This document shows, piece after piece, positions 22,948 through 40,217 of a DNA stretch of 64,000 bases (position 1 is its first letter; each line of letters begins with the position of its first letter). A program made the translations under genes and the position numbers. The notes beneath the pieces were generated by a model, which was not told where the DNA came from, ran no database searches, and saw only the letters and a program-made list of their open reading frames with translations. This DNA comes from Candidatus Methanophagales archaeon. Its GTDB lineage: Archaea > Halobacteriota > Syntropharchaeia > Alkanophagales > Methanospirareceae. The stretch lies in the NCBI GenBank assembly GCA_003336485.1, contig QENH01000201.1, positions 10,704-74,703 on the forward strand. The letters are read 5' to 3'.

Positions 22948-22990
22948 GCATCTCCTCCAGTTTCCTTTACTCATCCACTCATTCACCCAT

Positions 22991-23986: not shown

Positions 23987-24044
23987 CTTCCCTCATCACG
24001 CTAATCCACGTAATTATTTAAGGACATATCCACATATAAAACTG

Positions 24045-25232
24045 ATGCTAAACTTGTCGCCAGAAGATACCGTTCTGTTATGCTGCACGAGAACGAGCAT
24101 GAATAAAACCACCATATATAAACTCAAAGAGGCTTTAAGTAGACGATTGAACTGGAATCATATCTTAGAAAATGCTCTGCAACATGGTATTGCACCCTTA
24201 TTATATCACAATTTAAGTGAGATGGCTGATGTGCCAGAAGAGGTTATGGAACATCTGCGAATGCAGTATAATGCGAATCTTGCTCGGAACATGTTAGTTT
24301 ACAATGAGCTGAGCAATGTTTTAAATGCGTTTGAACACGCAGGGATAGAGGTGGTTGTTCTAAAGGGTGCTGCGCTTGCAGAGACGGTTTATCAAGATAT
24401 AGGTTTGAGACCTTTTAGTGACGTTGACCTTTTGGTTAGAAAGAAGGATTTGCAGAGGGCAAAAAAGAAGCTGGTTGAGCTGGGCTATATATTGGATGAG
24501 GATGTCTCGCCGGAGAGGTATAACGAGGATTTCGGTTGTGATTTGTATTATGCCGGCAAAGTAAATGTCCTGGAGATTCACTGGGATATAATGCGGAAGA
24601 CTAAAAGTGACAGATATGCGAGGATCAAAATAGAACATATCTGGGAAAGAGCAGTACCAGCGAAGATAGCAGGTGCTGATACACGCATGATGTCGCCGGA
24701 AGATATGCTGTTACACTTTTGTGTGCACCTACCAAAGCATCGCTATAATCGGTTAATCTGGCTATGTGACGTTTTAGAAGTTATAGAGCATACAGATATT
24801 GATTGGGGATATGTGCTAGAGAGCGCCAAAAAATACCGGACAATGGCGTATATGTACTATGGTCTACATTTTACGGATGTGCTATTAGGTTGTGATATAC
24901 CCGAAAAGGTACTAAACGCGCTGAAGCCGCATCGGCCCGAGATAATGGTGCTGAGCACGGTATTAAAAGATGTCTTGTCGCGCGAGCGGAAGATAATGCC
25001 GATTCTCAATTTGATGAAGTTATTGCTGATAGATAGATTTCAGGATAGAGTGAGATATTTATGTGAATATGTATTCCCACCAGTGGACTCGTTAGCACGT
25101 ATGTATTCGGTTTCGGGAAAAAAGGTGTATCTTTATTATTTCGTGCATCCCGTCTACGTGTGGCTTGAGACAGGCAAGCGCCTTATGGCAATCGTCAGTT
25201 CGAGAGCAAAGAAGCGTTACCGGTGGTTCTGA
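24045..25232 (+). CDS. putative nucleotidyltransferase (NTP_transf_5-like, family often found in RiPP/lasso clusters)
   Basis: ~396 aa from the ATG at 24045. The ORF-track extension from 23763 overlaps the ABC gene and reads as nonsense. GAALAETVYQDIGLRPFSDVDLLV matches the G...R.xxDxDLLV nucleotidyltransferase signature; helical C-terminal domain. Confidence 0.5.
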   Translation: MLNLSPEDTVLLCCTRTSMNKTTIYKLKEALSRRLNWNHILENALQHGIAPLLYHNLSEMADVPEEVMEHLRMQYNANLARNMLVYNELSNVLNAFEHAGIEVVVLKGAALAETVYQDIGLRPFSDVDLLVRKKDLQRAKKKLVELGYILDEDVSPERYNEDFGCDLYYAGKVNVLEIHWDIMRKTKSDRYARIKIEHIWERAVPAKIAGADTRMMSPEDMLLHFCVHLPKHRYNRLIWLCDVLEVIEHTDIDWGYVLESAKKYRTMAYMYYGLHFTDVLLGCDIPEKVLNALKPHRPEIMVLSTVLKDVLSRERKIMPILNLMKLLLIDRFQDRVRYLCEYVFPPVDSLARMYSVSGKKVYLYYFVHPVYVWLETGKRLMAIVSSRAKKRYRWF

Positions 25233-25253
25233 GTTGGTGTACGGAGACCAAAT

Positions 25254-25766
25254 TTATGTTTTATATACGACGGTAAAAAAGAGTTTCATAATTCTCCTCG
25301 CAATCCGATTCCCGTGCTTGAGATAATAAACCGAGCACGAAAAGAACGTTAGCATGAGATTGATAAACATCCCAAATCCGTTATTTAGTCTGATTATTCT
25401 GGTTCCTTTTCGTATTGCAATGACCTTGCCAATAACGTGTTCAGAACGGACGATCTCAGCAGTCGTTGTATTATCACCTTTTTGAAGAAAAGATAAACTA
25501 TCATATTTGCGAATGACCCTATGAACGATGAATTTATCGAGATTTTTGAACACGATAATGTCTCCAACCCGGATTTCAGCGGGTTTAACTGATTGAACCA
25601 GCACCTTATCACCGATTTGTATTAAAGGAATCATACTTCCGGAAAGAACAGTGAGCCACAACTTCTGCTTTTGGTTATACAGATCTTCCCAGAGGCCAAT
25701 GATTGCGTTTTGTGATAATTTCGGCTCTTGATCTAAATTCCCGTTGTTGTTGGTATAGCTTTGCAT
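25254..25766 (-). CDS. signal peptidase I, archaeal/eukaryal Sec11-SPC18 type (S26B)
   Basis: 170 aa; box B LSGSMIPLIQIGD, box C/D GDIIVFKNLDKFIVHRVI (His-type), box E KGDNTTT, C-terminal TM. Confidence 0.75.
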   Translation of the reverse strand: MQSYTNNNGNLDQEPKLSQNAIIGLWEDLYNQKQKLWLTVLSGSMIPLIQIGDKVLVQSVKPAEIRVGDIIVFKNLDKFIVHRVIRKYDSLSFLQKGDNTTTAEIVRSEHVIGKVIAIRKGTRIIRLNNGFGMFINLMLTFFSCSVYYLKHGNRIARRIMKLFFTVVYKT

Positions 25767-25856
25767 ATTTTGTATTTTCCCTGTTATTCCAATTGTTAGA
25801 AAGAATTGAGAAAATGCATAAGTAAGTAAGTAATTGTATATAATTTCTGTAATTGT

Positions 25857-25893
25857 AAAAAAATACCGCAGGGGCGAGCATAAACACGCCCCA
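25857..25893 (-). terminator. hairpin + oligo-T terminator-like element downstream of surface-protein gene A
   Basis: On the - strand: GGGGCG-tgtttatgc-TCGCCCC then tgcGGTATTTTTTT; one of three similar elements (see 35553 and 37501). Confidence 0.5.
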
Positions 25894-25930
25894 ACTCTTT
25901 CTTTTCTGTTATTTGTTTTACTATTTCACT

Positions 25931-28882
25931 TCATGGGTTTTTACGTATTTTTAATGGCCTACCTGATTGTGGAACACCAGTTACTACATGATGGTTGCCC
26001 ACAGCATCATCGTATTCCACTGTCCATTCTATCCCTTCGTTTGGATCCTGTGGATTGGTCATAGCCACCTCAAGCTCGAAGAAGTCATGACTCCAGGCAC
26101 CGCTACCTGCAGATATATCTCCCAATTCCACTTCACCATCAACGATGTTCACATTCGCAGGCGCATAGCTGATACTAGCAACTACGTTGTATGCGTCGCC
26201 GGGTCCGCAGTTCACAAAGTGAACGTCCATCCAGCTCCTGAAGAGGTCTGGTGACGGGTCCCATTCATAGCCTGGTATGTGGTATGCAGACCAGCGGTAT
26301 TTATCCGGACTAAGTTCTGGTTGTTGCACTTCGCGTACAATGATGTAATCCACCTTCGACTCCGTATCGCTGTCGCCATCCGCATCTGTTACCGTTAACG
26401 TTACCGTATAAGTCCCTTCTGTCGTGTACTCGTTCGTTGGGTTCTGATCCGTGCTTGTATCACCATCGCCAAAGTCCCAGTTCCAAGAGACTATGCAATC
26501 ATAGGAACGCGATAGATCAGTAAATTCAACGGTTAGAGGTGCGGATCCTGAAGTTGGTTCTGCATTGAAATCAGCAGTTGGCTCTGTATCTGTTACTGTC
26601 GCTGTCGTAGTATCAGGCTCTGAATCCTGATTACCGTCATTAACTACCAAAGTAACTGTATATGTCCCATCTTGTGTGTAATTATGACTTGGATTCACTC
26701 CTGTTCCGGTGTTCTCATCGCCGAAGTCCCAGTAGTAAGTTAGTGGCATGCCTTCCGGGTCATAAGAGCCAGAGCCACCAAATGCTATTGGAACGCCCTC
26801 AACGCCTGTGTAATTGCCATTTGCATCAGCTACTGGCGGTTGGTCTACGGATATCCCTTCATCTGTCGAATCTATAACATAGGGATGGTCAGAGATATCG
26901 CTAATAGGGACGTTATCTGCTAGAACAATGGTAGTATCTCTTGTTGAGACTCTAAGAACGAATGTAGCCGAGGGTTCCGGATCGGGTCCTGATTCTGGTA
27001 TCACAGTTATTCGATAAAACCCTATCTTTTTTTCTGTTAGTAATATTCTATCATCCAAATCGCCATCACCATCTATATCGGGTTCTATGTACATAGCACC
27101 TGGAATTTCATTTCCTTCTTTGTTTATGGTTAAATTATCGGGGTCCGTCAGAATTAACTCAATTGGATTGCAAATGCCGTCTATTTGCATCTGCCATTCA
27201 AAGGGTTCAATAGTAGCCGTGGTTGTGTTTACATCGTATGCTCCTTCATCGTCTGTTACGTTCAGTGAGACATTGTAAGTCCCATTTTTCAGGTATGTAT
27301 TCTCTGGGCTCTCGCCTGTTCCTGTGTTTCCATCGCCGAAGTCCCAGGCGAAGGAGGCAATGCTGCCGTCTAGGTCATAGGACCCGCTTCCGTTAAACAC
27401 TATCGGGTCTCCTTCCGTTCCGGTGTATGGTCCATTCGGGTCAGATACTGGCGGTATGTTCTCGCTCGTCACTGTTATATAATCCACCTTCGTCTCCGTA
27501 TCGCTGTCGCCATCCGCATCTGTTACCGTTAACGTTACCGTATAAGTCCCTTCTGTTGTGTACTCGTTCGTTGGGTTCTGATCCGTGCTCGTATTTCCAT
27601 CGCCAAAGTCCCAGTTCCATGTTGTAATACTATCGTATGATGTTGATTCATCTGTGAAGATAACTGTTAATGGCTTTAAGCCACTTGTCGGTGTAGCGGA
27701 GAAGTTTGCCGTTGGTTCGCTATCGTCAATCGTAGCCGTTGTTGTTTTCTCGTCGTATGCGCCTTCATCGTCTGTTACGTTCAGTGAGACAGTATAAATG
27801 CCGTCATCTACGTATATATTCATAGGATTCTCGCCTGTTCCTGTGTTTCCATCGCCGAAGTCCCAGGCATAGGTGGCAATGCTGCCGTCTAGGTCATAGG
27901 ACCCGCTTCCGTTAAACACTATCGGGTCTCCTTCCGTTCCGCTGTAAGGCCCATTCGGATCAGATACTGGCGGTATGTTCTGAGGTAGAGCGATAGTAAC
28001 AGCTCTAATTCTCTCGCTATTTGACCAGTCATCATCTATTGGAATACTTGCATTCACGATGATATTATACTCGCCAGGAGTAAGTGCACTTGTATTCCAG
28101 GAATCGCCGCCGCTCGGATAGAGATAATGACCCATCTTTATGGTCCATCTATGCGTAACTACTGTCTGAGTCCATGTTGAATTTGCAACTTTTACTGTTA
28201 CATCCACAGATTCATTATAATCCCCTTCATTCACAATTTTGTAGTAAATGCGATACGTGTTACCAATGGTCAAGTTCTCGCTTGCTGATATATCCGTTCC
28301 ATTATACTTGATTTTTATACCGTTCGTATCTGGCGCGTAATCCGTTGAGACGTTTATGTCATGAATCGGTACTGCATCACAGGAGAATATGCCGTCTATC
28401 GCAATACATGTATCGGGCGTTCCGGTTTGATCTGTACATGCAAGTCCTGTAAAGTTCAGATTCGAAACACCTACCGTAACAGGACTGAACGTCAACTTTG
28501 CGAGACAATATGTGCCTGCGGGTACACCACCACCCGAATACTGCAAGTCTACAAACGCTATCCTGTAGGTGTTAGGTGCACCTCCGGGTTTGTAGTTCCA
28601 GCTTTCAAGAGTAAATGCAGGACCTGTACCGGGTCCGGTGGTGTCACCACTGGTGATATTAACAATGGTTGAGTCAATAGTCAAGTCGGCGTTACAACTT
28701 TTAAATCCCGCATCAGTTGTGAAATTCAAGTTTACAATCACATCAGTACCAAGTGCCGAACTTCCGTGCTGTGGATCTAAGTAAAAGGTACCCGTCGCTG
28801 AGACCGCGTTAATGCAAACTGCTACTAGCAGTATACTTAATATCACTAAAATTTTATTGTTCATTTTTTTCTCTTTCACCAC
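25931..28882 (-). CDS. giant secreted scaffoldin-like protein: cohesin-like N-terminal domain, tandem PKD domains, conserved C-terminal module
   Basis: 983 aa; signal peptide. N-terminal ~140 aa align to the cohesin pattern of the pseudogene at 48131. At least five PKD domains (WDFGDGNT motifs). Last ~130 aa (YRWSAYHIPGYEWDP...VHFVN.GPG) are shared with gene 35631-37376. Likely ATG start at 28863. Confidence 0.7.
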   Translation of the reverse strand: MVKEKKMNNKILVILSILLVAVCINAVSATGTFYLDPQHGSSALGTDVIVNLNFTTDAGFKSCNADLTIDSTIVNITSGDTTGPGTGPAFTLESWNYKPGGAPNTYRIAFVDLQYSGGGVPAGTYCLAKLTFSPVTVGVSNLNFTGLACTDQTGTPDTCIAIDGIFSCDAVPIHDINVSTDYAPDTNGIKIKYNGTDISASENLTIGNTYRIYYKIVNEGDYNESVDVTVKVANSTWTQTVVTHRWTIKMGHYLYPSGGDSWNTSALTPGEYNIIVNASIPIDDDWSNSERIRAVTIALPQNIPPVSDPNGPYSGTEGDPIVFNGSGSYDLDGSIATYAWDFGDGNTGTGENPMNIYVDDGIYTVSLNVTDDEGAYDEKTTTATIDDSEPTANFSATPTSGLKPLTVIFTDESTSYDSITTWNWDFGDGNTSTDQNPTNEYTTEGTYTVTLTVTDADGDSDTETKVDYITVTSENIPPVSDPNGPYTGTEGDPIVFNGSGSYDLDGSIASFAWDFGDGNTGTGESPENTYLKNGTYNVSLNVTDDEGAYDVNTTTATIEPFEWQMQIDGICNPIELILTDPDNLTINKEGNEIPGAMYIEPDIDGDGDLDDRILLTEKKIGFYRITVIPESGPDPEPSATFVLRVSTRDTTIVLADNVPISDISDHPYVIDSTDEGISVDQPPVADANGNYTGVEGVPIAFGGSGSYDPEGMPLTYYWDFGDENTGTGVNPSHNYTQDGTYTVTLVVNDGNQDSEPDTTTATVTDTEPTADFNAEPTSGSAPLTVEFTDLSRSYDCIVSWNWDFGDGDTSTDQNPTNEYTTEGTYTVTLTVTDADGDSDTESKVDYIIVREVQQPELSPDKYRWSAYHIPGYEWDPSPDLFRSWMDVHFVNCGPGDAYNVVASISYAPANVNIVDGEVELGDISAGSGAWSHDFFELEVAMTNPQDPNEGIEWTVEYDDAVGNHHVVTGVPQSGRPLKIRKNP
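26335..26581. repeat. near-identical PKD-domain DNA repeat (partner 27460-27709)
   Basis: Encodes TADFNAEPTSG...WNWDFGDGDTSTDQNPTNEYTTEGTYTVTLTVTDADGDSDTE vs TANFSATPTSG..., with long identical nucleotide runs. Confidence 0.7.
27172..27451. repeat. near-identical PKD-domain DNA repeat (partner 27712-27985)
   Basis: Encodes PPVSDPNGPYTGTEGDPIVFNGSGSYDLDGSIASFAWDFGDGNTGTGE vs ...YSGTEG...SIATYAWDFGDGNTGTGE. Confidence 0.65.
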
Positions 28883-29400
28883 CTATTTTTATCTTTTGAT
28901 CCGTTGTTGCCACATCATGCGTACAATATCCTGCTTTAACAGCAACAACTTCATTCCAGCTTTTTTTCATAAATACCATGCTTTTTTCCTCCTTTTTTTC
29001 TTTGACTTTAACTTGAACATGAACAATTCAGAACAGAACCACTTACATAGTTATTCCAAATTGCTATAACGTCATTTGTATCTATAATGCCATTATCAAG
29101 TGCCGTGTCTGCTGCCCATTTGTTCTTTAAAGATATACCTGCAGTGTAACAATCCCAAACGGCTATAACATCCGTTGTGTCAACGCTACCATCTTCATTC
29201 GGATCTCCGCATATCCACTTCTTGGTCCTGAAGTTATTGCCCTCATTACTCTCACTCACCGTATTATTGCAATCTGCACATACTGTTATGTTATCCTCTA
29301 AAGGTGTATATACCCACATATAATCGAAACATCCAATATAACTCTCGTTATGTGATAACGCCTCAGTTACGCAATCGTATGCCACTTCAGTACCATCGAC
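28883..29400. repeat. cassette repeat: 5' leader of gene A plus the 3' CARDB-like/dockerin module of gene B (partner 32617-33150)
   Basis: Intergenic 28883-29007 vs 32617-32760 and coding 3' ends 29008-~29330 vs 32761-~33085 are >90% identical (the last ~110 aa of B and C are near-identical); identity decays further into the beta-helix region. Confidence 0.85.
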
Positions 29401-32400
29401 AAGCAGGGAAGTGTTATGCCCTGCCTGAGCGGTTCCAGTCCCTACGTTCGTTACGTTATAGCATATTGTGCAGTTTTCTGGCCAGCAGACCCATATACCC
29501 GTTATCTTCAGGTCCGGCAGCGATGTTGCTACTTCTACCAACGGATGCCAATCACCACCTTGCTTTATATTCCCAGAAGAATTATAAGGCCGCATTGTAT
29601 CTCCAAGTCCATCTTCATTGTTGTCAACGCCTATGTAATCGCCCCAATAGTTACCACCCAACCAAGAACCGCCGATTATGTTCTCGCCGGAAGTCGACGT
29701 GGTGTTCCATTCGTTGGTTCCATCATCATATGCGTTATTCGTATTGTCAAAGTAGTTGTTGTAGATGCTGTTATCGTCTGAAGATGTTAGATTGACGCCG
29801 ATGCCATTATTAGTTACGATGTTACCCGCGATCATAACGTTGTCAGAAACGTTCACCCAGATACCATCAGCATTATCGGTAATCATGTTCTCGCTGACAT
29901 TGACACCAGTAGGGAAACCCGCACCAACCGGTCTACTCCTCGGAGGTAGCATTGCCGAGCTATAATCTCCGTCCGGAAGTGCAAGAGCAGTTGGCTGCGC
30001 TGCTGCAACTCCCTCATTTTCGATCACCGGCATATCGTCATCGTCTGCCTCTATGCCACTTGCAAGACCAGCCATCGTACCAGAGCCAGAGACAGAATCG
30101 AGCATAAAACCGTAGTCACAGTTGTTAACTATGGTATTGCCATGAATTGCGACATTTGTGAAGGAAAACACTTTGATGCCATGAGCCTGATTTGATGCAG
30201 TGTTTTCTGCAATGTAGTTATCTGAGATAATGGCACCTGATCCCGCACCCATATAAATTCCGCATCCAAGAGTGTCGCTAACACCATTATTTATCATTGT
30301 ATTTCCCATAATCTTCAAGTTCGAGGGTCCATACGCAGCGAATATACCATGATAGAAGTTATTGGATGCCGTGTTATTGCAAATCGTAATGTTACTGGTT
30401 GGCGAGTGGTAAACAAAAATGCCATGATAGCCGTTGTTATTCGCATCGTTATCACAAATCGTGGCGTTGCTACTTTGGTATACTAGGATTCCATGTGCCT
30501 CACACTCCGAAGCAATGTTATTGATAACGGTGTTGTTAGAAGATGCGCTATAAAGATATATACCATACGCATTCTGCCTTGCAATGTTATCAGTCATTAT
30601 CGCATTATTGGATGCCCATGATAGAAGTCCTGTCCCGACATCGGTAAGATTGTTGTAATTAACATTGTTCCCCGAGACTACACTATTATCGGAATGATAC
30701 AGACGTATACCCTCCCAACCATTATGATTTGCTGTGTTGCCGACCAGATAGTTGTAATCGGAATAGGTGATACATATACCCATATATATCTCATTGAATC
30801 TTGCTGAATTGTTGATCACATGATTGTTATCGGATTTATATAAATAAATACCATACCAACAGTTCGAATCCGCGGTATTGTCAATAATGGTGTTGCTATC
30901 TGCGAAATATAAAGAAATACCCCTATGGTTCTGTGTGCAGTTGTTATTCGAAATGCGGCAGTGGCTCACGCCTTTATTAAGATAAATCCCTGCCTTACCC
31001 TCCGTAGCGCCTCCCCGTATGGTAAACCCACTGATATTGACATGACCCATATAGATATCAAAGACATGGTCAGCTATATCTGCTGCACTCACAATACAGT
31101 TTGCAGACCCATTTGCCGACCGGATTGTTAACTGTTCGAGGACATCTACATTCTCAGTGTAAGTCCCATCATGCACGATTATCGTATCGCCTGCATTTGC
31201 ATTACTTACCGCAGATTGTATCGGCGTTGCACTCGGATTAACAGGGTCGGGCTCAATCCACCAGCCAATTTCATTGACATAAATAGTACGCGGTGGAACT
31301 TCTGGTTTCGTAAGCGGCAGAAGATCTATGTTATTTGTCGTTAAAATATAAGGGTCATCACAGATCCCATCGCCATCTGTATCGGTGCACATCTCCGAGA
31401 ATCCGGTGCCGGACGGTGTTGCCCAATAGTTCCCTCCCAGATATGAACCGCCAACAATGTTTGTTTCCAATGTTTTGGGAATGTTCCAGTCGTTCGCATA
31501 GACAGTTGTACCAGCAAAATTGATGTTCTTCGCATTGCAGAAATAGTTGTTATGAATTAGATTTGCACCTGCAGCTTTTATGTTTATTCCCCCGTCAACA
31601 TTGTTTCTTATGTACGAGTTATTGATTATTGTAGATGAACTGCTGTCGACATAGACCCCCGCAAAACTGTTAGTGCCAGACGCAATGTGTGTTAACTTGT
31701 TGGATGGGCTATGAAAAAGATAGATGCCGCATTGAGAGTTAGAATTCGTTTCTGTACTTTCCAGTGTGTTGAAGGAACAGTAGCAAACATAAATGCCTTG
31801 GTGATGGTTGTTGTTGCATTTAATATTCTGCAACTTGTTTGTGTCGGCATTGTCGAGGAGGACGCCACAGAAATTATTGGATGATACAATATCCGTTAGA
31901 TTTGTGTTGTCTGTATAAAATAGACGCAAACCGTTGTTCTTCAAGCTGTCCGAGCCTCGGATTGTAATGTTATTCAGTACAGAGTTATCGGCATTGCAGA
32001 GGTACAGAGCAGAAAACACCTGATCTTGTAGATTTACCGATTGATTGTAAAACGCAATTGGTCTGCCTCCGGAACCAGTTACATTTATCAGACGGTTGTT
32101 GCACTCAGACAGTGAATTTGGTCGAAAATAGAAGTCATAATGTGAATTCTCCTGCAGAATACAATCGCGTATTGTGTTTGCAGTGCTATAAAAAATCGTG
32201 ATTCCAGCATCGCGATTGGAATATGCCGTTATATTTTGTATTGTGTTATTGGACGCTTTAAATAGTTCGATACCATAGCGGAAACCAGTAATTTCGCAGT
32301 TCTTTAACGTATTATCGTCTGAGTCGCTTGATAGATAGATTCCAAAACCGGAGAAGTCGCCATCTCCAGAGATTATATGACCTCCGCCGTTAAAAGTTAT

Positions 32401-32616
32401 GCCATCCTTGCCATTGAACTCGATGCAGGTGCCGTCATGACCGATTATGTCTGCAGTGAGCATAACCTCGTCACCATAGCTTGCACTCTGTATCTTCGTG
32501 TTGCAGTCTGAGCAGTTGACGCAGGTCGTCAACGCATTTACTGAGGGTACCAATACCAGCATAAAAATGACGAGTGCCAATGCCATTCCCAATTTTATCC
32601 GTTCTTCTCTTCCCAT
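29008..32616 (-). CDS. giant secreted parallel beta-helix protein with CARDB-like domain and C-terminal type-I dockerin
   Basis: 1202 aa; signal peptide; dozens of PbH1-like rungs; C-terminus [19 protein letters not shown]...[17 protein letters not shown] is two dockerin-type Ca-binding repeats; ends NCSCSS. Confidence 0.75.
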   Translation of the reverse strand: MGREERIKLGMALALVIFMLVLVPSVNALTTCVNCSDCNTKIQSASYGDEVMLTADIIGHDGTCIEFNGKDGITFNGGGHIISGDGDFSGFGIYLSSDSDDNTLKNCEITGFRYGIELFKASNNTIQNITAYSNRDAGITIFYSTANTIRDCILQENSHYDFYFRPNSLSECNNRLINVTGSGGRPIAFYNQSVNLQDQVFSALYLCNADNSVLNNITIRGSDSLKNNGLRLFYTDNTNLTDIVSSNNFCGVLLDNADTNKLQNIKCNNNHHQGIYVCYCSFNTLESTETNSNSQCGIYLFHSPSNKLTHIASGTNSFAGVYVDSSSSTIINNSYIRNNVDGGINIKAAGANLIHNNYFCNAKNINFAGTTVYANDWNIPKTLETNIVGGSYLGGNYWATPSGTGFSEMCTDTDGDGICDDPYILTTNNIDLLPLTKPEVPPRTIYVNEIGWWIEPDPVNPSATPIQSAVSNANAGDTIIVHDGTYTENVDVLEQLTIRSANGSANCIVSAADIADHVFDIYMGHVNISGFTIRGGATEGKAGIYLNKGVSHCRISNNNCTQNHRGISLYFADSNTIIDNTADSNCWYGIYLYKSDNNHVINNSARFNEIYMGICITYSDYNYLVGNTANHNGWEGIRLYHSDNSVVSGNNVNYNNLTDVGTGLLSWASNNAIMTDNIARQNAYGIYLYSASSNNTVINNIASECEAHGILVYQSSNATICDNDANNNGYHGIFVYHSPTSNITICNNTASNNFYHGIFAAYGPSNLKIMGNTMINNGVSDTLGCGIYMGAGSGAIISDNYIAENTASNQAHGIKVFSFTNVAIHGNTIVNNCDYGFMLDSVSGSGTMAGLASGIEADDDDMPVIENEGVAAAQPTALALPDGDYSSAMLPPRSRPVGAGFPTGVNVSENMITDNADGIWVNVSDNVMIAGNIVTNNGIGVNLTSSDDNSIYNNYFDNTNNAYDDGTNEWNTTSTSGENIIGGSWLGGNYWGDYIGVDNNEDGLGDTMRPYNSSGNIKQGGDWHPLVEVATSLPDLKITGIWVCWPENCTICYNVTNVGTGTAQAGHNTSLLVDGTEVAYDCVTEALSHNESYIGCFDYMWVYTPLEDNITVCADCNNTVSESNEGNNFRTKKWICGDPNEDGSVDTTDVIAVWDCYTAGISLKNKWAADTALDNGIIDTNDVIAIWNNYVSGSVLNCSCSS

Positions 32617-32760
32617 TTTCTTTTCTTCCTTTTTACCACCTATATTTTTATCTTCTGATGTGCTGTTGCCGCATCATGCGTGCAATATCCTACTCTAACA
32701 GCAACAACTTCATTACTGCTTTTTTCATGAATACATTGTTTATTCCCCGCCTCTTTTTCT

Positions 32761-35472
32761 TTAACCTGAACATGAGCAATTCAGAACAGAACCACTTACA
32801 TAGTTATTCCAAATTGCTATAACGTCATTTGTATCTATCACGCCATTATCAAGTGCCGTGTCTGCAGCCCATTTGTTCTTTAAAGGGACGCCTGCAATGA
32901 AATAATCCCAAACGGCTATAACATCCGTTGTGTCAACGCTACCATCTTCATTCGGATCTCCGCATATCCACTTCTTGGTCCTGAAGTTATTGCCCTCATT
33001 ACTCTCACTCACAGTATTATTACAATCTGCGCATACGGTTATGTTATCCTCTAAAGGTGTGTACACCCACATATAATCGAAATATGCGATGTAGCTCTGG
33101 TTATGCTCAAGTGCTACAACTACACAATCGTATGCCCGCATAGTACCGTCAACAGATAGCGAAGTGTCATGCCCAGCCAGAGCGGTTCCAGTTCCTATGT
33201 TCGTTACGTTATAGCATATGGTGCAGTTATCGGGCCAGCAGACCCTTATGTCTGTTACCTTCAAGTCAGGCAGTAATACCGCTTCTTCCGTCAACGGATG
33301 CCTATCCCCTCCCGTTGTTATATTGCCCGACGAGTTATAAGGAAGCAGTGTATTTCCTAAGCCATCGCCATCGTTATCTACGCCCGCATAATCGGACCAA
33401 TAATTCCCGCCAAGATAATGACCGCCGATTATGTTCGTTCCCTCTCTTTTCGTAATGTTCCATGCGTTGTTGCCGTTATCATTAGCATTATTCGTGTTCT
33501 CGAAGTAGTTATTGTAAATCAGGTTATTGCCGCTCGAATCGTACAGGTAGATGCCAAATCCGTTGTTCGAGTTCGCAGTGTTGTCCGAGATGTTGTTGTA
33601 GTGCGACTCGGACAAGCCGATGCCAGCCCAGTTGCCCGATGCGGTAATATCGGAAACGTTGCTGTAATCAGCATAGCTGAGATAAATCCCTGCCTTAGCG
33701 TCTTCTGTTGCGCCCGTTACATGGAACCCGGATATATCCACATAATCCGCAGTCACCTCAAAGACATGATCATCAGAATCAGCAGCCTGAACAATTGTAT
33801 CCGCGTGATTACCTGATGTTGATCTTACGGTCAAAGACTTGTAAACAGCCACATTCTCTGTATAAGTCCCCGGATCTACAATAATTGTATGCCCATCCAA
33901 GGTATTGGGGTCATCTATTGCCGCTTGGATAGTTACGAAACTTTCGCTTGTGTTTATATTGTAAATCGGAGGTACTCTAGCCACTATTCTAGTACGTAGA
34001 CAAGCGTTCCAACCTTCGTCTGCCAGATCCGTCCACGAACCGCTATCAGTGTGCCTGATAAAGCTCACATTCGTCTGTATAGGAGGATCAACCACCCCTG
34101 AAAATTCACACTCAATAGGTATAGGGTGACCATAGCCCGGTGTGGTCATCTTAACGCCAACAGTAAATTGCTGACCAGCGTATATTGAAATCGAGTCGCT
34201 CAGTGGTATCGAGTAATAGCCAAACTCTTGACAGTTACCGATTTGATGCGCAAGCTCAGTACCAAAAAAGCCGTCCCAAATATATATTTCATACTGCGCA
34301 TTGTTGCTCGTGGTCCAGAAATCAACATGGGTTAAATCACCAAACTGAATTGCTGTATAGACACTTGCCATCCAAGCACTGTTGTCCCCATAGCCCACAG
34401 AAGCTACGAAGCCTGCCTCATCCCAGTAACGAAGTTCTTCATTCGGGTTGTCATCCGTATATTTAAGATATGCTATTTCATTGACACAACTTGAGTCATA
34501 AGCAAGATAGAAGAAACCATTATTCCCCCAACCTGTTCCCCAACTGTTTTTGGCTATCCAGGCTCCTATTCCTGCATGGCTGGGGTTGGGATGTGGAACA
34601 GCATCGTCCCAACCGATAATAGATACTAAGTGGTTAATGTTTCCAGAGCATGGATAGTTGTCGTAAATATACCCATAAGTCGAATTCCAGTATAGATAAC
34701 TTGGATCGTGCTGGTAAGCCACTATAACGGGTTCCTGATTATATACCGCATTTTTTATCGCGTCTATTTGTGACCCGTCATTCGTTACAAGTCTATATCC
34801 GTTAACTTTCTTAATTGGAGGGCAATCATCACATACACACGAGCCATCACAGTTCAATGCGTAGCCGCCGTAAGGATTGCATGTTTCCGAAACAGAACCT
34901 TTCCTGATAAAAACCTCGCTTGCAAGCCAACTCCAGCCACCTGCATTACAGGGGTCATCCGAGTCGTCATACATATAAACCCATGAACGGTCAACGCACA
35001 AGGCTACGCTCTGCTCAGAAAAATTGTATGCTGCTCCTTCATCCATTAGAACCGCCGATTCTAATACCGAGGTAGTGCCAAAAACCCAACAAGTCTCACA
35101 AGGGTCCTGGTCCTTGACCGTTGTCACCTTACCGTAATCGCGCCAGTCGAAGCTGCTGGGGAGTGCGTATGGCGCCGGCAACCCTTTAACTGGAAGCTGA
35201 TCCAGGTGACTTAAATCCACGGGTGGTGGAATATAGCCATAAAATGTCTCGGTTGGATTATCCCGATGTGCTTCAAAATCGGGATTTAGTGGAGCCAATT
35301 GAGGTTTTTCCGCTGCTCCGCCTCCATCTCGGCTATCGTCAGTAGCCGCGCTAATTCCAGCAGACAATGTTAGTGCACTTGTAACTACGGTCAGTATCAA
35401 TATTGCCGCTGTCAATATGGCTATTGGTTTTTTCATCGCATTCATATTCTCTACTATAAAACAATTGTGCAA
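32761..35472 (-). CDS. secreted papain-like (C1) cysteine peptidase fused to beta-helix, CARDB-like domain and C-terminal dockerin
   Basis: 903 aa; signal peptide/TM anchor; C1 active-site blocks [11 protein letters not shown] (Cys), [10 protein letters not shown] (His), [16 protein letters not shown] (Asn); C-terminal ~110 aa near-identical to gene B including the dockerin repeats. Confidence 0.75.
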
Positions 35473-35552
35473 ATCACCATATATTCTTTTGTTTTTTTTT
35501 CAGCAACTTCATGGATTTGCACCATGCAAGTGACATCGTTTTTCTTTTTTTT

Positions 35553-35590
35553 CTAAAAAATAACGCCGGGGCGAATGAACTCACCCCAAC
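35553..35590 (-). terminator. hairpin + oligo-T terminator-like element downstream of gene D
   Basis: On the - strand: GGGGTGAGTTCATTCGCCCC then GGCGTTATTTTTT; homologous to the element at 37501-37541. Confidence 0.5.
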
Positions 35591-35630
35591 TCTTTTTGCA
35601 CTTTGTTTTATATTTCACTTCATTGGCTGT

Positions 35631-37376
35631 TTACGAGGGCGCACAGAATTCCGGAACATTCTCTATCACATGATACACACCATCCGCATCGTAGTATTCC
35701 ACCATCCATAGTATTCCTTCCTCAGGAGGCGGTAGTGGCACGTAGGTCATATCCACCGCAAGCACGAAGAAGTCCGAACTCCAAGCGCTTCCGGAAGCTG
35801 GTATATCTCCCAACGTCACTTCTCCGTCCACGATGCCCACATTCGCCGGGGAATCGGTGATGGTTGCAGTTACGCCGTAAGCGTTACCGGGTCCCCAGTT
35901 CACGAAGTGAACATCCGTCCAGCTCCTGAATAGTGCCGGGAACGGGTCCCATTCATAGCTTGGGACATGGTATGCAGACCAGCGATATTCATCCGGGCAG
36001 AGATTCGCCTCGCCAACAATGACTTTCCATTCCTTAGTCACTTGGTTCGAGGTTATGGTGACCTCTTGGCTATTCACAAAACTCGCTTCGATAACATCCG
36101 TGCCAGGCAAGGTCCCTGTGTAGGTAAACGTTGCTTCTCCATTGACGTCAGTTGTATCTGTGTCTGTCTGCCCATCATGTGGACCTGAAACGATAGTGAA
36201 GGTCACTTCACGGTCCACGATCGGGTTCCCTAAGTCATCCTGCACCGTTGCGGTAACTGTATGCTCGCTGCCTACCGGATTGGTTGCAGAGGTTGGAGTT
36301 AACAGAATACCTTCTCCCACGACTGCTGTTGTAGACGCAAGGAACAGCGATGCAAAGAAGATGTTGTCGTCGTTCGATGGATTTATGGTATCAACGAATA
36401 TATTGGTATCTCCATCCGATACGAATGGTATGAGATTGTACAATTCGTCGTCATAACGGGGACTGGTACTATCACCATTTGCGTAAGGATCGGGTGGGTT
36501 GGCATTGCTATCTCCCACGCCTCCGACCGTCAGAAGTGCACCGTTGTTCGCTGATCCATCATCTTGACCACCGGCTGATGATGTCAAACGCACGCCATTA
36601 ACATCCACTTCGCTGTGTTGGCCATAATACGAGGAAGATTGGTAGCCAAATGATATCCCTAGAGACATATCGAGCACTAGGTTCGGGTCGCTCGTATCGA
36701 TCGGTTCAGCTAATCCAATTGCGAAAGTATCGCCCGCAACATCCTGCGCTCCGAAAAGAAGCACAATTGTGTTTTCGGTCGCCTGGTTCGGATCATCGAA
36801 GATTACCGCTAGGATTGAACCGTCAAGATTGATCGTTTCGATGATCTCAAGATCCACAATTCCCGCTGGTGCCGCATCAACGATGGGCGCTACGATTGCA
36901 GTCACATCAGACCATGCACTGTTTGCATTCACGGGATCATGGCTATCCCAGTTGACGTTGTTGCCGTTGATCTTTACGGCTCCGTCCGGCAATGGCCCGC
37001 CACAACTGCCCCAGACATCGGCTGCCGCCATATAGGCTGACCTAACCGTTGCTCCGGCTGGCTTTTCCACCTGGATAGTTCCAGCAGAGGTAAATGTGCC
37101 GAGGCCATCTATCGAGAGACTGATCAGTCCGGTTTCTGTAATCTCCGGATCGATTGAGCGCGTCGGTGTCGATAGTTTACTTGTAGCCATATCAGTTCCT
37201 GGTACATTTGGGTCCGCAGATGGTTTAGTGTCCTCCAATGACGAAGGTATCTTGCCAATAATATTCGATTTACTTGGGACCGCATATACCGGTGTAGCAA
37301 ATGCTGATAAAATCAACACAATTACTAAACAAATGCACGCACCTGTTACATAGCTTTTTCTTTCCATTTTTTTCAT
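35631..37376 (-). CDS. secreted Ig-like (Big) domain protein with the C-terminal module shared with gene A
   Basis: 581 aa; signal peptide; Big-like domain (VTATVQDDLGNPIVDREVTFTIVSGPHDG); C-terminal ~130 aa ~60% identical to the C-terminus of 25931-28882. Confidence 0.65.
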   Translation of the reverse strand: MKKMERKSYVTGACICLVIVLILSAFATPVYAVPSKSNIIGKIPSSLEDTKPSADPNVPGTDMATSKLSTPTRSIDPEITETGLISLSIDGLGTFTSAGTIQVEKPAGATVRSAYMAAADVWGSCGGPLPDGAVKINGNNVNWDSHDPVNANSAWSDVTAIVAPIVDAAPAGIVDLEIIETINLDGSILAVIFDDPNQATENTIVLLFGAQDVAGDTFAIGLAEPIDTSDPNLVLDMSLGISFGYQSSSYYGQHSEVDVNGVRLTSSAGGQDDGSANNGALLTVGGVGDSNANPPDPYANGDSTSPRYDDELYNLIPFVSDGDTNIFVDTINPSNDDNIFFASLFLASTTAVVGEGILLTPTSATNPVGSEHTVTATVQDDLGNPIVDREVTFTIVSGPHDGQTDTDTTDVNGEATFTYTGTLPGTDVIEASFVNSQEVTITSNQVTKEWKVIVGEANLCPDEYRWSAYHVPSYEWDPFPALFRSWTDVHFVNWGPGNAYGVTATITDSPANVGIVDGEVTLGDIPASGSAWSSDFFVLAVDMTYVPLPPPEEGILWMVEYYDADGVYHVIENVPEFCAPS

Positions 37377-37500
37377 TTCACCTCCTAATTTTTTGGGGTA
37401 TTTATATAGCGCCCCTCCTCGGCGCCCTCTCCCTATTTCTCAGCCATCTAATGGATTCGCACCATACAGATGACATCTTTTTCATTGCTTTTCGTTCTGG

Positions 37501-37541
37501 CAAAAAAAAATAACGCCAAGGCGAGTGAACTCACGCCTCCT
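37501..37541 (-). terminator. hairpin + T9 terminator-like element immediately after the 46-aa ORF
   Basis: On the - strand: GGCGTGAGTTCACTCGCC then TTGGCGTTATTTTTTTTT, ~35 nt after the peptide stop codon. Confidence 0.5.
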
Positions 37542-37564
37542 CGACGCTCTTATTTGGTCACCAT

Positions 37565-37705
37565 TCATCCTTCATTTCCTCCGCCTCCACAGCATAGATT
37601 AAAAAATGGGTCCATCTGCGGAATAGGCCCTTCATATTGACCATAAGCTCCGATTTCGATCGTTTCTGACTTGACCTCAGGCTTATTGTATTCTTCTCGT
37701 TTCAT
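37565..37705 (-). CDS. 46-aa candidate RiPP precursor peptide (MKREEYNKPEVKSETIEIGAYGQYEGPIPQMDPFFNLCCGGGGNEG)
   Basis: Unannotated short ORF. Its ATG overlaps the last 23 nt of the rSAM/SPASM gene. A canonical Shine-Dalgarno AAGGAGGTGA sits 12 nt upstream. Stop is followed by a hairpin + T-run. C-terminal Cys-Cys-Gly4 core-like segment. Confidence 0.45.
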   Translation of the reverse strand: MKREEYNKPEVKSETIEIGAYGQYEGPIPQMDPFFNLCCGGGGNEG

Positions 37706-38822
37706 CTTCTTTTTTTATCACCTCCTTTTGGTTTTTTGTAATACCGCCCGGCTCAAAGCCGGGACTCTGCATTACCGTGACTTGCGAAGATCCCCGCCAT
37801 TGTGCGTACCTACATGCGCTCGGCGATGCCCCCACTATATCGCCTGTTTCAAGATAAACCACACCGGGACATCTAATGCAGTACTGTGCCAAATCACACT
37901 TGGAACACACGGGTAAATCAGCGGAAGTTAAATTCCGCAATCGTTTCAACTCTTCGCTTGGCTGCATATGCCATATCTCTTTAAAACTCCTTTCTCTCAA
38001 ATTACCTACCGCCATAGGCATCATCACGCATGGACACACAATCCCGCTTGGTGATACGCTGCAAGCTGCGTTCCCAGCTTTGCATTTGAATCTATGCGCA
38101 GGATCTTTTTCGCCTATTTCTATTAGATAACTGAGATCAAAATCGTGTCTCGGCAGATATCTCTCCATGTCCTCAAAGGATAGGTCGTACTGTTGAGGTT
38201 CTAACGAGCCGTTCTTCATCGGCGCGATTCCTGCACTTATCCTGTGACGGACACCTAACTGTTCACACATAGCTTTGAGATCGTCGGATTCATGGATATT
38301 CAAATTCATAAGTGATGTTTTTACGGTAACTTCTATTCCCGCCTTGACCAGATCCTTGATAGCAGCAACGGTGCGTTCAAAAGAGCCCGCTACCCGAGTA
38401 ATGTGATCATGCGTTTTTGCTGTTGCGCCATAGAGACTGAGTTCAAACTTAATCAGCTTCAGCGTCCTTATTTCGTCCATCATTTCAGCGGTAATCAACG
38501 CGCCATTGGTCATAAACGTAAGGAAAAAGCCTTTTCTACTGGCATATCTCGCAATCTCAAACAAGTCATCACGAGTGAAAATCTCGCCACCTGTAAAGGA
38601 AAGGTAAAAGGTACCCATATCCACTAGTTGGTCTATTATGTCTTTAATCTCCTCTGACGACAATTCAACGTCATTATCATTTACCATATAACAATGCCTG
38701 CATTTTAGATTGCATTTACTTGTAAGTTCCATTTGAACAGCATAAGGTATATTTTCCCGAATGCAGGTCGCAACCAACTTTTTACCCAAACCCGTAGAGT
38801 ATTCAACGGTCATCGCCACCAC
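37683..38822 (-). CDS. radical SAM / SPASM-domain peptide-maturase-like enzyme
   Basis: 379 aa; CNLKCRHCY (CxxxCxxC) rSAM cluster near the N-terminus; C-terminal SPASM Cys constellation (CKAGNAACSVSPSGIVCPC...CSKCDLAQYCIRCPG). Confidence 0.85.
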   Translation of the reverse strand: MVAMTVEYSTGLGKKLVATCIRENIPYAVQMELTSKCNLKCRHCYMVNDNDVELSSEEIKDIIDQLVDMGTFYLSFTGGEIFTRDDLFEIARYASRKGFFLTFMTNGALITAEMMDEIRTLKLIKFELSLYGATAKTHDHITRVAGSFERTVAAIKDLVKAGIEVTVKTSLMNLNIHESDDLKAMCEQLGVRHRISAGIAPMKNGSLEPQQYDLSFEDMERYLPRHDFDLSYLIEIGEKDPAHRFKCKAGNAACSVSPSGIVCPCVMMPMAVGNLRERSFKEIWHMQPSEELKRLRNLTSADLPVCSKCDLAQYCIRCPGVVYLETGDIVGASPSACRYAQWRGSSQVTVMQSPGFEPGGITKNQKEVIKKEDETRRIQ

Positions 38823-39129
38823 CTTCTGCTTCTGTTTCTGCTTCGGCGTTTCTAATCTGCAAAATCTTTTTCGCTACCAGTTGCTCTGCAAATTCCTGTA
38901 CATCTGCCTGTGCTACTTCAAGACTTACATCAAAACGCTCACAAGTCAGCGATATTATTTCTTTTATCCTTCTTGTACCATCGGCTAATTCCCAGATAGC
39001 ACTTCCTACCTTGTTAAGCGTGTGAATCGCACGCCCATCTGCAGTTAGAATAACGACTCCATCGCCTATCTCTCGCCATACTAATTCATCCGACCTACGT
39101 AGGTAGCTATCTAACGGAAACATATTCAC
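38803..39129 (-). CDS. PqqD-family protein (RiPP recognition element)
   Basis: 108 aa; PqqD pattern (VILTADGRAIHTLNKVGSAIWELADGTRRIKEIISLTCERFDVSLEVAQADVQEFAEQL); overlaps the upstream kinase (ATGA) and the downstream rSAM gene by 20 nt. Confidence 0.7.
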   Translation of the reverse strand: MNMFPLDSYLRRSDELVWREIGDGVVILTADGRAIHTLNKVGSAIWELADGTRRIKEIISLTCERFDVSLEVAQADVQEFAEQLVAKKILQIRNAEAETEAEGGGDDR

Positions 39130-40004
39130 ACCCCCATTTCCAGGTTATCAATAGAATCCCAGAAACTTTTATCCGGCAAAAACAGCAGTTCGTAAAATGG
39201 CACCTCGCTTGCTACATCGACACAGAATCCCATCATCTCCCGAAACGTTTCTTTCCTATTCGTCGAAAGCAAAGTATCTGAATACACAACTTCTCTCACG
39301 AATCTTGCTACAAAATCTCTTTCACTGATTTTTTTTATGATATTCGCCTCCCCATGTCGGATTAAAAATATTGCATGCAACGGCACAGATCCATTGCTAA
39401 TATCTAAAAAGTCACCACGAATCGGAGTGCTACCAACCGTATAATGCCCATTTACTTTGTTGACAATCACCGATTCGTCATTCAAAATCGTGTAATCCAA
39501 ATCAGAGGATAATTTAGCTATCGTTGACTTTCCGCTTTCCGAAGGTCCGGAGAATAGGTAGCCAATTCCTTCTCTTGAAACTGCGCAGCCATGTATCAAG
39601 AAGTTATTTCTGCTATCATTTTTTTCTTTCAATAGTGTATAATATACCTGAAACAGAAACTGCTCAAAAATACGTACGCTCCGTTCAGAGAAAAGTGCAT
39701 TTTTTGCATTTATTCGGCATTGCTTTTTTCCCGGATCCAGAGTCCCGGTTATCAAGCCAGAATGGAAATCGAAATTATTCCCGTCAACGGTCTTGGACAT
39801 AAGGAGAGAATTAGGTAGGTTAATCTCTTCTTTATGCATAACGATGTTTACATCTATGGTGAGGTCAGGCGCATTTTCAGATAGGAAGCCCTTATAATAC
39901 GCACGTACCGATGCGCAATAGTCAGGGTCTTTAAACCTTAACGAGCAACATACATCGCCTATTTGCAATCGGCATTCCGTATATTCTATATCGGAATTGG
40001 CCAT
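39126..40004 (-). CDS. HPr kinase/phosphorylase C-terminal-domain-like kinase (RiPP-associated kinase family)
   Basis: 292 aa; HGCAVSREGIGYLFSGPSESGKSTIAKL matches the HprK P-loop region (HG..V...G.G.L..G.SG.GKS); first gene of an overlapping three-gene operon. Confidence 0.65.
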   Translation of the reverse strand: MANSDIEYTECRLQIGDVCCSLRFKDPDYCASVRAYYKGFLSENAPDLTIDVNIVMHKEEINLPNSLLMSKTVDGNNFDFHSGLITGTLDPGKKQCRINAKNALFSERSVRIFEQFLFQVYYTLLKEKNDSRNNFLIHGCAVSREGIGYLFSGPSESGKSTIAKLSSDLDYTILNDESVIVNKVNGHYTVGSTPIRGDFLDISNGSVPLHAIFLIRHGEANIIKKISERDFVARFVREVVYSDTLLSTNRKETFREMMGFCVDVASEVPFYELLFLPDKSFWDSIDNLEMGV

Positions 40005-40065
40005 CTTCCGCTTTTCACCCCCTCGCCCTCAACATTTTTTTTTGTATGTGCTATCCATAGCAGAG

Positions 40066-40073
40066 GTTTTATA
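40066..40073 (-). promoter_or_regulatory. palindromic TATA-like element TTTATAAA ~60 nt upstream of the kinase start
   Basis: Only strong AT box in the 213-bp gap between eno and the kinase gene. Confidence 0.3.
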
Positions 40074-40217
40074 AATAGTTGTAAGTAGATCTAACACGCC
40101 TTTGAAACATATAGAACCATAATAAGAGTTAGAAAATAAATATCCGTATCGACTATGAAAAGATTTTCGCGTCTTCTGGTCCTCACCACTTGTTTGTATA
40201 CTCGAATCAATAAATCA

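Follow-up and report, generated by a model that had tools for sequence, protein, structure and literature searches.

The DNA considered here is a 64,000-nt stretch of contig QENH01000201.1 (the window; all ORF coordinates are positions within it) from a Methanophagales archaeon of the ANME-1 lineage (ANME, anaerobic methanotrophic archaea). Its minus strand carries four consecutive open reading frames (ORFs) for a ScmC-family kinase-fold protein, a PqqD-type recognition element (RRE) of the kind used by peptides that are made ribosomally and then modified post-translationally (RiPPs), a radical S-adenosylmethionine (rSAM)/SPASM enzyme and a 46-aa peptide. The ORF listing and the sequence contain all four as an earlier interpretation made from the letters of this DNA (the sequence-only reading) had them, and two candidate signals border the group:

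40068-40075, minus strand: TATA-box-like TTTATAAA, palindromic, 64-71 nt upstream of the ScmC-like start codon
39126-40004, minus strand: ScmC-family P-loop protein, 292 aa, two-domain PEPCK/HPr-kinase fold, putative ATP-dependent peptide phosphotransferase
38803-39129, minus strand: discrete PqqD-type RRE, 106-108 aa (108 aa from GTG; likely start ATG 39123)
37683-38822, minus strand: radical SAM/SPASM enzyme, 376-379 aa (379 aa from GTG; likely start ATG 38813)
37565-37705, minus strand: precursor peptide ORF, 46 aa, member of a conserved family, with an upstream Shine-Dalgarno sequence
37502-37510, minus strand: T9 run, archaeal-type terminator candidate downstream of the precursor gene

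The kinase-like protein and the short ORF are identical (100%) to the GenBank proteins C5S53_17640 and C5S53_17625, respectively. Some of the junctions differ from their first description. The kinase and PqqD genes do not share an ATGA; the sequence at this point is GGG GTG TGA ATATG, GTGTGAATATG, giving a GTGA overlap if PqqD starts at GTG 39129 and a 2-nt gap if it starts at ATG 39123, the start favored by homologues (in locus L003, stop 6876 and start 6879). The 20-nt overlap reported between PqqD and the rSAM gene applies to GTG 38822, but is reduced to 11 nt from ATG 38813, which we prefer because it agrees with the N-termini of homologues (MTVEYST / MAIEYST). The 23-nt overlap between the rSAM gene and the short ORF was borne out, and the ATG of the latter is preceded, at a distance of ~12 nt, by a strong Shine-Dalgarno sequence, AAGGAGGTGA. 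The box said to precede the operon does sit in the 213-nt intergenic gap ahead of it, but there is no enrichment of the motif (3 copies in 64 kb versus 3.4 expected); it is thus by its position that TTTATAAA is suggestive, and only suggestive, of a promoter element. The oligo-T terminator proposed at the other end was found again as the T9 run, 55 nt past the stop codon of the short ORF.

That the 46-aa ORF is a genuine gene is argued for by the family to which it belongs. A word-indexed search with the peptide matched nothing beyond itself; the family emerged from homologous loci (designated by L and a number), gathered via an alignment of eight ScmC sequences, and later from phmmer. Reading of the locus DNA uncovered a related peptide at every homologous ScmC-PqqD locus with sufficient flanking DNA, encoded mostly right after the rSAM gene, upstream in some loci, and on the opposite strand in L007. 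The conserved short ORF, whose absence from related loci the sequence-only reading would have taken as contradicting it, is therefore present there. A hidden Markov model (HMM) of 20 homologous peptides has a single match in the window (37565-37714, 81 bits, E 2e-23), and an exhaustive phmmer search among 1.84 billion representatives yielded 17 further peptide clusters, all of them unnamed; the HMM match and the phmmer family rule out a chance ORF. No Pfam or NCBIfam model matches the peptides at E values up to 10.

The peptides divide into a conserved leader and a more variable core, as is characteristic of RiPP precursors. The leader consensus reads x-[KR]-E-x-Y-x-K-P-x-[IVM]-[KR]-[ST]-E-x-[IV]-x-[IL]-G-x-[YF]-G, within which the motif YxxPx[IVLM] is invariant across the family (Y6-x-x-P9-x-V11 in the window), and the second residue after the leader is mostly Tyr. 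Cores are 15-35 residues long; those of the main clade finish in P-[IV]-x-Q-L-[QE]-P-F-F-G-L-C-C plus 0-7 residues, and most cores finish ...PFFGLCC. The window peptide has a predicted leader of residues 1-22, MKREEYNKPEVKSETIEIGAYG, and a predicted core of residues 23-46, QYEGPIPQMDPFFNLCCGGGGNEG, the latter devoid of Ser and Thr and with Tyr24 as its sole hydroxyl. Two independent rules place the putative boundary at G22 (GAYG/QY): cleavage after this residue would conform to the spacing of the lasso leader motif YxxPxL, which occupies positions -17 to -12 (PMC10368454), when applied to this leader, and A20 and G22 fit the small-residue -3/-1 rule of signal peptidases. L005 (6599-7172 and 8845-9150), and likewise L006, encodes six tandem or nearby precursor paralogues with a common leader and very different cores, two of which are without Cys or look degenerate. 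Protein P0133 (1721 aa, 13 matched repeats), which came into view as a poly-precursor, proved spurious, being a repeat-rich surface protein with an LPQTG end and a membrane anchor.

The PqqD protein adjoins ScmC in the homologous loci without exception, and its assignment withstood the profile check that had been proposed for it (PF05402, 61 bits versus a gathering score of 23.4). Its nearest solved structure is that of the lasso B1 protein TbiB1 (5v1u, E 1.3e-7), with other lasso PqqD chaperones also close, versus an E value of 0.63 for the PqqC/D structure of pyrroloquinoline quinone (PQQ) biosynthesis; with 42.9 versus 46 it falls just under the cut-off of the NCBIfam PqqD equivalog model. 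The window holds a leader motif of the YxxPxL type together with an RRE of the B1 type, both of them features of lasso peptide clusters.

The first gene had been described as an HprK-like kinase. What stood of this assignment is the fold, as the protein has a P-loop domain with the H...GxxGxGK[ST]...D[DE] signature of the PEPCK/HprK fold; the HprK models themselves remained below their cut-offs (PF07475, 16.3 versus 33.3 bits, E 0.007; TIGR00679, 16.9 versus 240 bits, E 0.003). The best NCBIfam family is ScmC, TIGR04249, with 43.3 bits versus a cut-off of 125 (E 2.7e-11), a model on which ScmC homologues of the bacterial clade reach at most 30 bits. The Pfam family PF27840 (ScmC) figures in the precomputed annotation of P0001, a protein 100% identical to that of the window, and in that of all listed homologues but one. 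Residues H138, G153, G158-K159, T161, D176 and E177 are invariant among ScmC proteins and S160 is near-invariant; they include what we take to be the catalytic His, the Walker A Lys and the Asp-Asp pair of HprK/P. On the lasso-associated HprK_rel_A and HprK_rel_B models, ScmC scores ~17 bits. The accompanying statement that HprK-like kinases serve as tailoring enzymes of lasso peptides agrees with the literature, according to which an HprK-type kinase of such clusters phosphorylates a precursor Ser and the nucleotidyltransferase PsmN then puts hexoses on the phosphate (PMC8498205; PMC6993621), PsmN being termed an 'uncharacterised nucleotidyltransferase' (PMC6993621).

For the third gene, the profiles named in advance both scored over the gathering score (Radical_SAM PF04055, 87 bits; SPASM PF13186, 43 bits). 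The homologue alignment has an invariant CX3CX2C motif (C34/38/41) and seven invariant SPASM cysteines (C244, C262, C303, C306, C312, C315 and C334). In NCBIfam, the enzyme is under the cut-off of every family: top scores are partial, covering the rSAM core versus AhbD and NirJ-type proteins, and full-length matches are to NirJ2, MftC, GeoRSP rSAM, StsB, AlbA and PqqE (bits/cut-off: MftC 130/265, PqqE 93.8/381, StsB 110/625, AlbA 96/850, and SkfB 64/300). A grouping with cofactor- or sulfatase-maturing enzymes, which would have spoken against the RiPP assignment, is not what we found, as no cut-off of such families was reached. Among solved structures, the enzyme is closest to SkfB, which forms thioethers (E 3e-15), with BlsE and PqqE next. 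By tblastn, the 64-kb window has no second copy of the gene, nor is there an rSAM domain among the nine ORFs annotated at 20166-37376. An rSAM enzyme with a full SPASM domain next to a Cys-containing core corresponds to the constellation found for sactipeptides and ranthipeptides.

The rSAM gene and the core cysteine covary. The core contains Cys at all 17 distinct loci with an rSAM gene and at neither of the two loci without one (0/2; Fisher p = 0.006). The latter, L036 (10001-15145) and L037 (4214-9561), whose ScmC proteins are 65% and 60% identical to that of the window, retain the rest of the system (ScmC, PqqD, peptide, peptidase, NTP_transf_5 and the two ABC genes). Their cores, LDYNNREYNGKGKHKGWDIFPGDK and FYYEDGDPVSHKKDKLKRNRKK, have no Cys and are rich in Tyr, Lys and Asp. 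The two loci are natural controls for matching enzymes to residues. At the bacterial locus L033 (8001-11259), a B12-binding rSAM protein with DUF4070 stands in for the SPASM enzyme; the peptide there ends in GGFWWWCK, and NTP_transf_5 is divided over two genes. The SPASM rSAM of L038 is 25% identical to that of the window. Since two archaeal loci dispense with the rSAM gene and one bacterial locus has a B12-type enzyme in its place, we infer that the rSAM protein is an accessory tracking the core cysteine and probably acting on the Cys motif, with ScmC and PqqD as the constant catalytic pair. The sequence-only reading had seen the signature of RiPP maturation in PqqD next to an rSAM/SPASM enzyme; its RiPP assignment is supported, but the rSAM enzyme would not be what defines the system.

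A second group of genes, 12 kb downstream of the operon, belongs to the conserved set:

25254-25766, minus strand: S26 signal-peptidase-I-like protease, 170 aa, no N-terminal membrane anchor, candidate leader peptidase
24045-25232, plus strand: NTP_transf_5 nucleotidyltransferase (ORF open from 23763; likely start ATG 24045)
22991-23986, minus strand: ABC transporter ATPase, DrrA-like, syntenic in L009, L014, L028, L033 and L035-L038
22138-23022, minus strand: ABC-2 type permease, DrrB-like, syntenic in the same loci

According to tblastn and Pfam tables, ScmC, PqqD, the peptide, the S26 peptidase, NTP_transf_5 and both ABC subunits occur together wherever contigs are long enough, and the S26 peptidase, NTP_transf_5 and the ABC pair accompany ScmC, PqqD and the peptide in archaeal and bacterial loci alike. 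The neighborhood comparison thereby confirmed the co-conservation of the ScmC-PqqD-peptide set, and a protease and an exporter, as usual for RiPP clusters, co-occur with it. Order and orientation of the distal genes are the same as in ANME-1 G60 (L009). The four genes taken by the sequence-only reading for one complete transcription unit are real, but the conserved set numbers at least 8 genes and they account for only half of it; the two parts of this set (distal genes at 22138-25766) are separated in the window by four large surface-protein genes (25931-37376).

The peptidase reaches 72.8 bits on TIGR02228, the archaeal-type signal peptidase I (cut-off 51.85), also matches Peptidase_S24, and keeps the SGSM, HR and GD motifs. 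Canonical signal peptidases carry an N-terminal membrane anchor before the catalytic serine. Here no hydrophobic segment precedes this residue, from which a catalytic domain facing the cytoplasm may be deduced; bacterial homologues from the system have C-terminal hydrophobic segments instead of an N-terminal anchor. This suggests an inverted, cytoplasm-facing topology for the signal-peptidase-I homologues of the system. The NTP_transf_5 protein (PF14907, 218 bits) has the DxD motif FSDVDLL. A start at GTG 23763 would entail an overlap of >200 nt with the divergent ABC ATPase gene, and ATG 24045 is probably the true start.

The system occurs in ANME-1, in ANME-2c (Ca. Methanogaster), in metagenome-assembled genomes of other Halobacteriota and Methanosarcinales, and, among bacteria, in a distant clade with a Dehalococcoidales genome as one of its members. 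The bacterial clade also carries the peptide family, its ScmC proteins being 26-30% identical, and the system is thus not confined to archaea.

Gene content, folds, conservation of the families, co-occurrence of the genes and the covariation of core Cys with the rSAM gene lead us to the view that the locus is, with good probability, an uncharacterized RiPP-family cluster that would make, modify, trim and export a small ribosomal peptide. We rate it as a RiPP cluster of the RRE-dependent kind whose precursor family is undescribed and whose set of enzymes is unusual, in keeping with a conserved short precursor ORF beside modifying enzymes and a PqqD-like RRE. The sequence of events given below, with all of its chemistry, the cleavage site and export, is to be understood as a proposal. 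To begin with, and here our confidence is high, the discrete RRE would bind the leader at Y6-x-x-P9-x-V11, by analogy to lasso B1 proteins and YxxPxL leaders. It would present the peptide to ScmC for phosphorylation with ATP, for which Tyr24 or the leader Ser13 are candidates (confidence moderate to low); a tyrosine comes into consideration as the window core lacks Ser and Thr. NTP_transf_5 might then elaborate the phosphate in the manner of PsmK/PsmN in pseudomycoidin, a step in which we have low confidence. With moderate confidence, the rSAM/SPASM enzyme is expected to cross-link or otherwise modify the C-terminal Cys pair, sacti- or ranthipeptide-like thioether cross-links being the likeliest product. 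The anchor-less S26-type peptidase could subsequently cut off the leader after G-A-Y-G22 (low to moderate confidence), and the ABC-2 transporter, again with moderate confidence, would export the product.

Several points weigh against this interpretation. The modification chemistry is one that we infer, and instead of being a peptide kinase, ScmC could act as a phosphorylase, an ATPase or a scaffold. The HprK-type RiPP kinases known so far target Ser, of which the core has none; phosphorylation of a Tyr or of leader Ser13 would be without precedent. The strongly conserved PFFGLCC core is unusual for antimicrobial RiPPs and would better fit a cofactor-like or signaling molecule. The accessory genes lie ~12 kb away from the operon behind large surface-protein genes, and both the operon and its joint expression with the distal genes are putative. 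The S26-like enzyme might alternatively process the adjacent secreted proteins. Finally, the covariation of Cys and rSAM hangs on two rSAM-less loci that may go back to one single loss.

Two of the adjacent secreted proteins share a domain that has to be considered here:

35631-37376, minus strand: 581-aa secreted protein with a Big_1 domain (Pfam), facultative partner, ending in a ~125-aa Cys-bracketed domain (35634-36020)
25931-28882, minus strand: 983-aa PKD-repeat protein with five PKD domains, ending in a second copy of the domain (25955-26329)

Its consensus is LCPDEYRW...VHFVN.G.G.A...IVDGEV.LGDI..G...W...F.LEVDM...EGI.W.VEYDD..G..H.I..VP.FC, and it matches nothing in Pfam and NCBIfam at E values up to 10. 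The window has two copies, both within the cluster; further copies are located in L002 (7708-8067), L003 (9723-10088), L007 (5023-5406) and L019 (6341-6700).

Among the alternatives, the one to be taken most seriously, albeit unlikely in our estimation, is that a small cofactor-like or metal-binding molecule, comparable to PQQ, mycofactocin or methanobactin, derives from the peptide, which would for the most part be discarded rather than secreted as a bioactive RiPP. The core P-[IV]-x-Q-L-[QE]-P-F-F-G-L-C-C is almost as conserved as the leader, reminiscent of PqqA and MftA, and a discrete PqqD with a short-N-terminus rSAM/SPASM enzyme resembles PqqD/PqqE and MftB/MftC. MftC (130 bits) and PqqE (94 bits) are indeed among the full-length matches of the rSAM enzyme, and PqqE is also one of its solved relatives, but these scores are far under the cut-offs of 265 and 381, and the RRE is nearer to lasso B1 than to PqqD. 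Conservation of a dedicated ABC-2 exporter, loss or replacement of the rSAM gene at loci that keep the remainder, and wide divergence of cores outside the main clade likewise disagree with a cofactor precursor. As to systems already on record, the cluster shares with the SynChlorMet (SCM) cassette (NCBIfam TIGR04248-04251) a ScmC-like protein next to a PqqD-like and a PqqE-like rSAM/SPASM protein, the kinase-like protein being assigned to ScmC by both NCBIfam and Pfam; its leader, RRE, kinase, nucleotidyltransferase and ABC components parallel those of kinase-type lasso clusters. That it is a bona fide SCM cassette or a degenerate lasso-peptide cluster is nevertheless improbable. All four SCM models are missed by far (besides ScmC, ScmD TIGR04248 with 27.5/100 and the ScmE/ScmF rSAM models with 114.8/400 and 85.8/400), there is a single rSAM enzyme rather than two, and neither an asparagine-synthetase-like lasso cyclase (C) nor a transglutaminase-like B2 cysteine protease was found among the genes annotated at 20166-40004 or at homologous loci.

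The secreted proteins raise yet another explanation, namely that the rSAM/SPASM enzyme matures these large proteins via their Cys-bracketed C-terminal domain and that the short ORF is incidental. Proteins with this domain are encoded beside the cluster in the window, directly after the precursor gene in ANME-1 G60, ANME-2c and L007, and ~3 kb downstream in L019. However, the domain is absent from L005, L011, L020, L028 and L033-L038, all of which keep the system, the peptide is present at all adequately flanked loci with an RRE-type leader, and no anSME family appears among the best 25 of 82 NCBIfam matches of the enzyme. We give this explanation hardly any credence and stay with an RRE-dependent RiPP cluster.

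Viewed as such, the cluster stands between several known systems. With kinase-type lasso clusters (paeninodin PadeK, pseudomycoidin PsmK/PsmN, BsfK/BsfN) it has in common a YxxPx[L/I/V/M] leader (PMC10368454), a discrete PqqD-type RRE, an HPr-kinase-fold P-loop enzyme, a nucleotidyltransferase and an ABC exporter, with the proviso that lasso PsmN and the PF14907 protein of the window are likened by the description as nucleotidyltransferase only. In contrast to lasso clusters, the window cluster has an rSAM/SPASM enzyme together with an S26-type peptidase, and the core offers neither a Ser for the kinase nor an N-terminal Gly/Asp-Glu ring pair. An rSAM enzyme with SPASM domain and Cys-containing cores are also found in sactipeptide and ranthipeptide maturation (SkfB, AlbA, StsB, PapB/CteB), but the RRE is a separate protein here instead of an N-terminal domain of the rSAM enzyme, and the latter is dispensable. 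A discrete PqqD-family chaperone with an rSAM/SPASM enzyme and a short peptide with a conserved C-terminal motif recur in the PQQ (PqqA/D/E) and mycofactocin (MftA/B/C) systems, from which the window cluster differs by its leader motif and by having a kinase, a nucleotidyltransferase and an exporter. Compared with the SCM cassette, finally, it has an identified precursor family, a peptidase, a nucleotidyltransferase and an exporter; we know of no identified precursor for SCM, whose canonical cassettes are found in Syntrophobacter fumaroxidans, Chlorobium limicola and Methanocella paludicola.

In the literature, we found no paper on the SynChlorMet cassette or on ScmC with radical SAM, and none in which an HprK-fold protein, PqqD and rSAM are treated together as a RiPP system; the one paper in which HPr kinase, radical SAM and RiPP meet concerns lasso clusters only. 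Nor did the search return a characterized RiPP from ANME, the archaeal and ANME material consisting of bulk antiSMASH counts. The statement of the sequence-only reading that no archaeal system with this gene set has been described agrees with these searches, but is slightly too strong, as the related SynChlorMet cassette exists in silico in the form of NCBIfam database models.

A more far-reaching thought, which we offer tentatively and hold to be possible rather than probable, is that ScmC, the PqqD-type RRE, NTP_transf_5, the anchor-less S26 peptidase and the ABC-2 exporter, together with YxxPx[IVM]-leader peptides, constitute a new RiPP class, with a PEPCK/HprK-fold phosphotransferase as its hallmark and Cys-directed rSAM enzymes as interchangeable add-ons. 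If so, the nucleotidyltransferase would elaborate the phosphate, the rSAM add-ons could be of the SPASM or the B12 type, and in evolution the class would stand as a sibling to the lasso leader/B1/kinase/nucleotidyltransferase module. ANME would then export a PFFGLCC-core peptide that might act along with surface proteins bearing the Cys-bracketed domain, for instance in signaling, adhesion or metal handling within the consortium. Anaerobic methane-oxidizing archaea are uncultured and control a major methane sink. A gene set that can be synthesized (the 46-aa precursor with its predicted cleavage site, the RRE, the kinase-fold enzyme, the rSAM/SPASM enzyme and the peptidase) would make the question of modified peptides in ANME, and of their role in consortia, directly testable in E. 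coli. The cluster connects the lasso leader/B1/kinase/nucleotidyltransferase logic to radical SAM chemistry and provides a candidate precursor family for orphan ScmC-type systems, and the loci with and without rSAM, having cores with and without Cys, are a natural experiment that helps to assign enzymes to residues.

As to the surroundings, the two halves of the cluster are separated by three very large secreted proteins (25931-35472), that is, the 983-aa PKD-repeat protein, a 903-aa papain C1 protease with lectin, NosD, CARDB and a dockerin-like tail, and a 1202-aa NosD/beta-helix protein with CARDB. None has a full-length homologue at the other loci, where the PKD-repeat protein matches via its PKD repeats or the C-terminal domain only; the three have the appearance of cargo or of an insertion. 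Transposase genes or fragments (IS66, HTH_Tnp_1 and ISAzo13-type) flank the cluster in L001 (3598-4291 and 5530-6000), L003 (12706-12876) and L036 (1-924), and the flanking genes vary by lineage, with enolase here and orotidine monophosphate decarboxylase/RraA in ANME-2c. Both the transposases and the lineage-varying flanks hint at mobility of the cluster. The contig of P0107 carries two ScmC paralogues, one in the usual set of ScmC, PqqD, rSAM and a 56-aa ORF, the other beside a second Radical_SAM gene, a 59-aa ORF, a GNAT acetyltransferase and NTP_transf_5.

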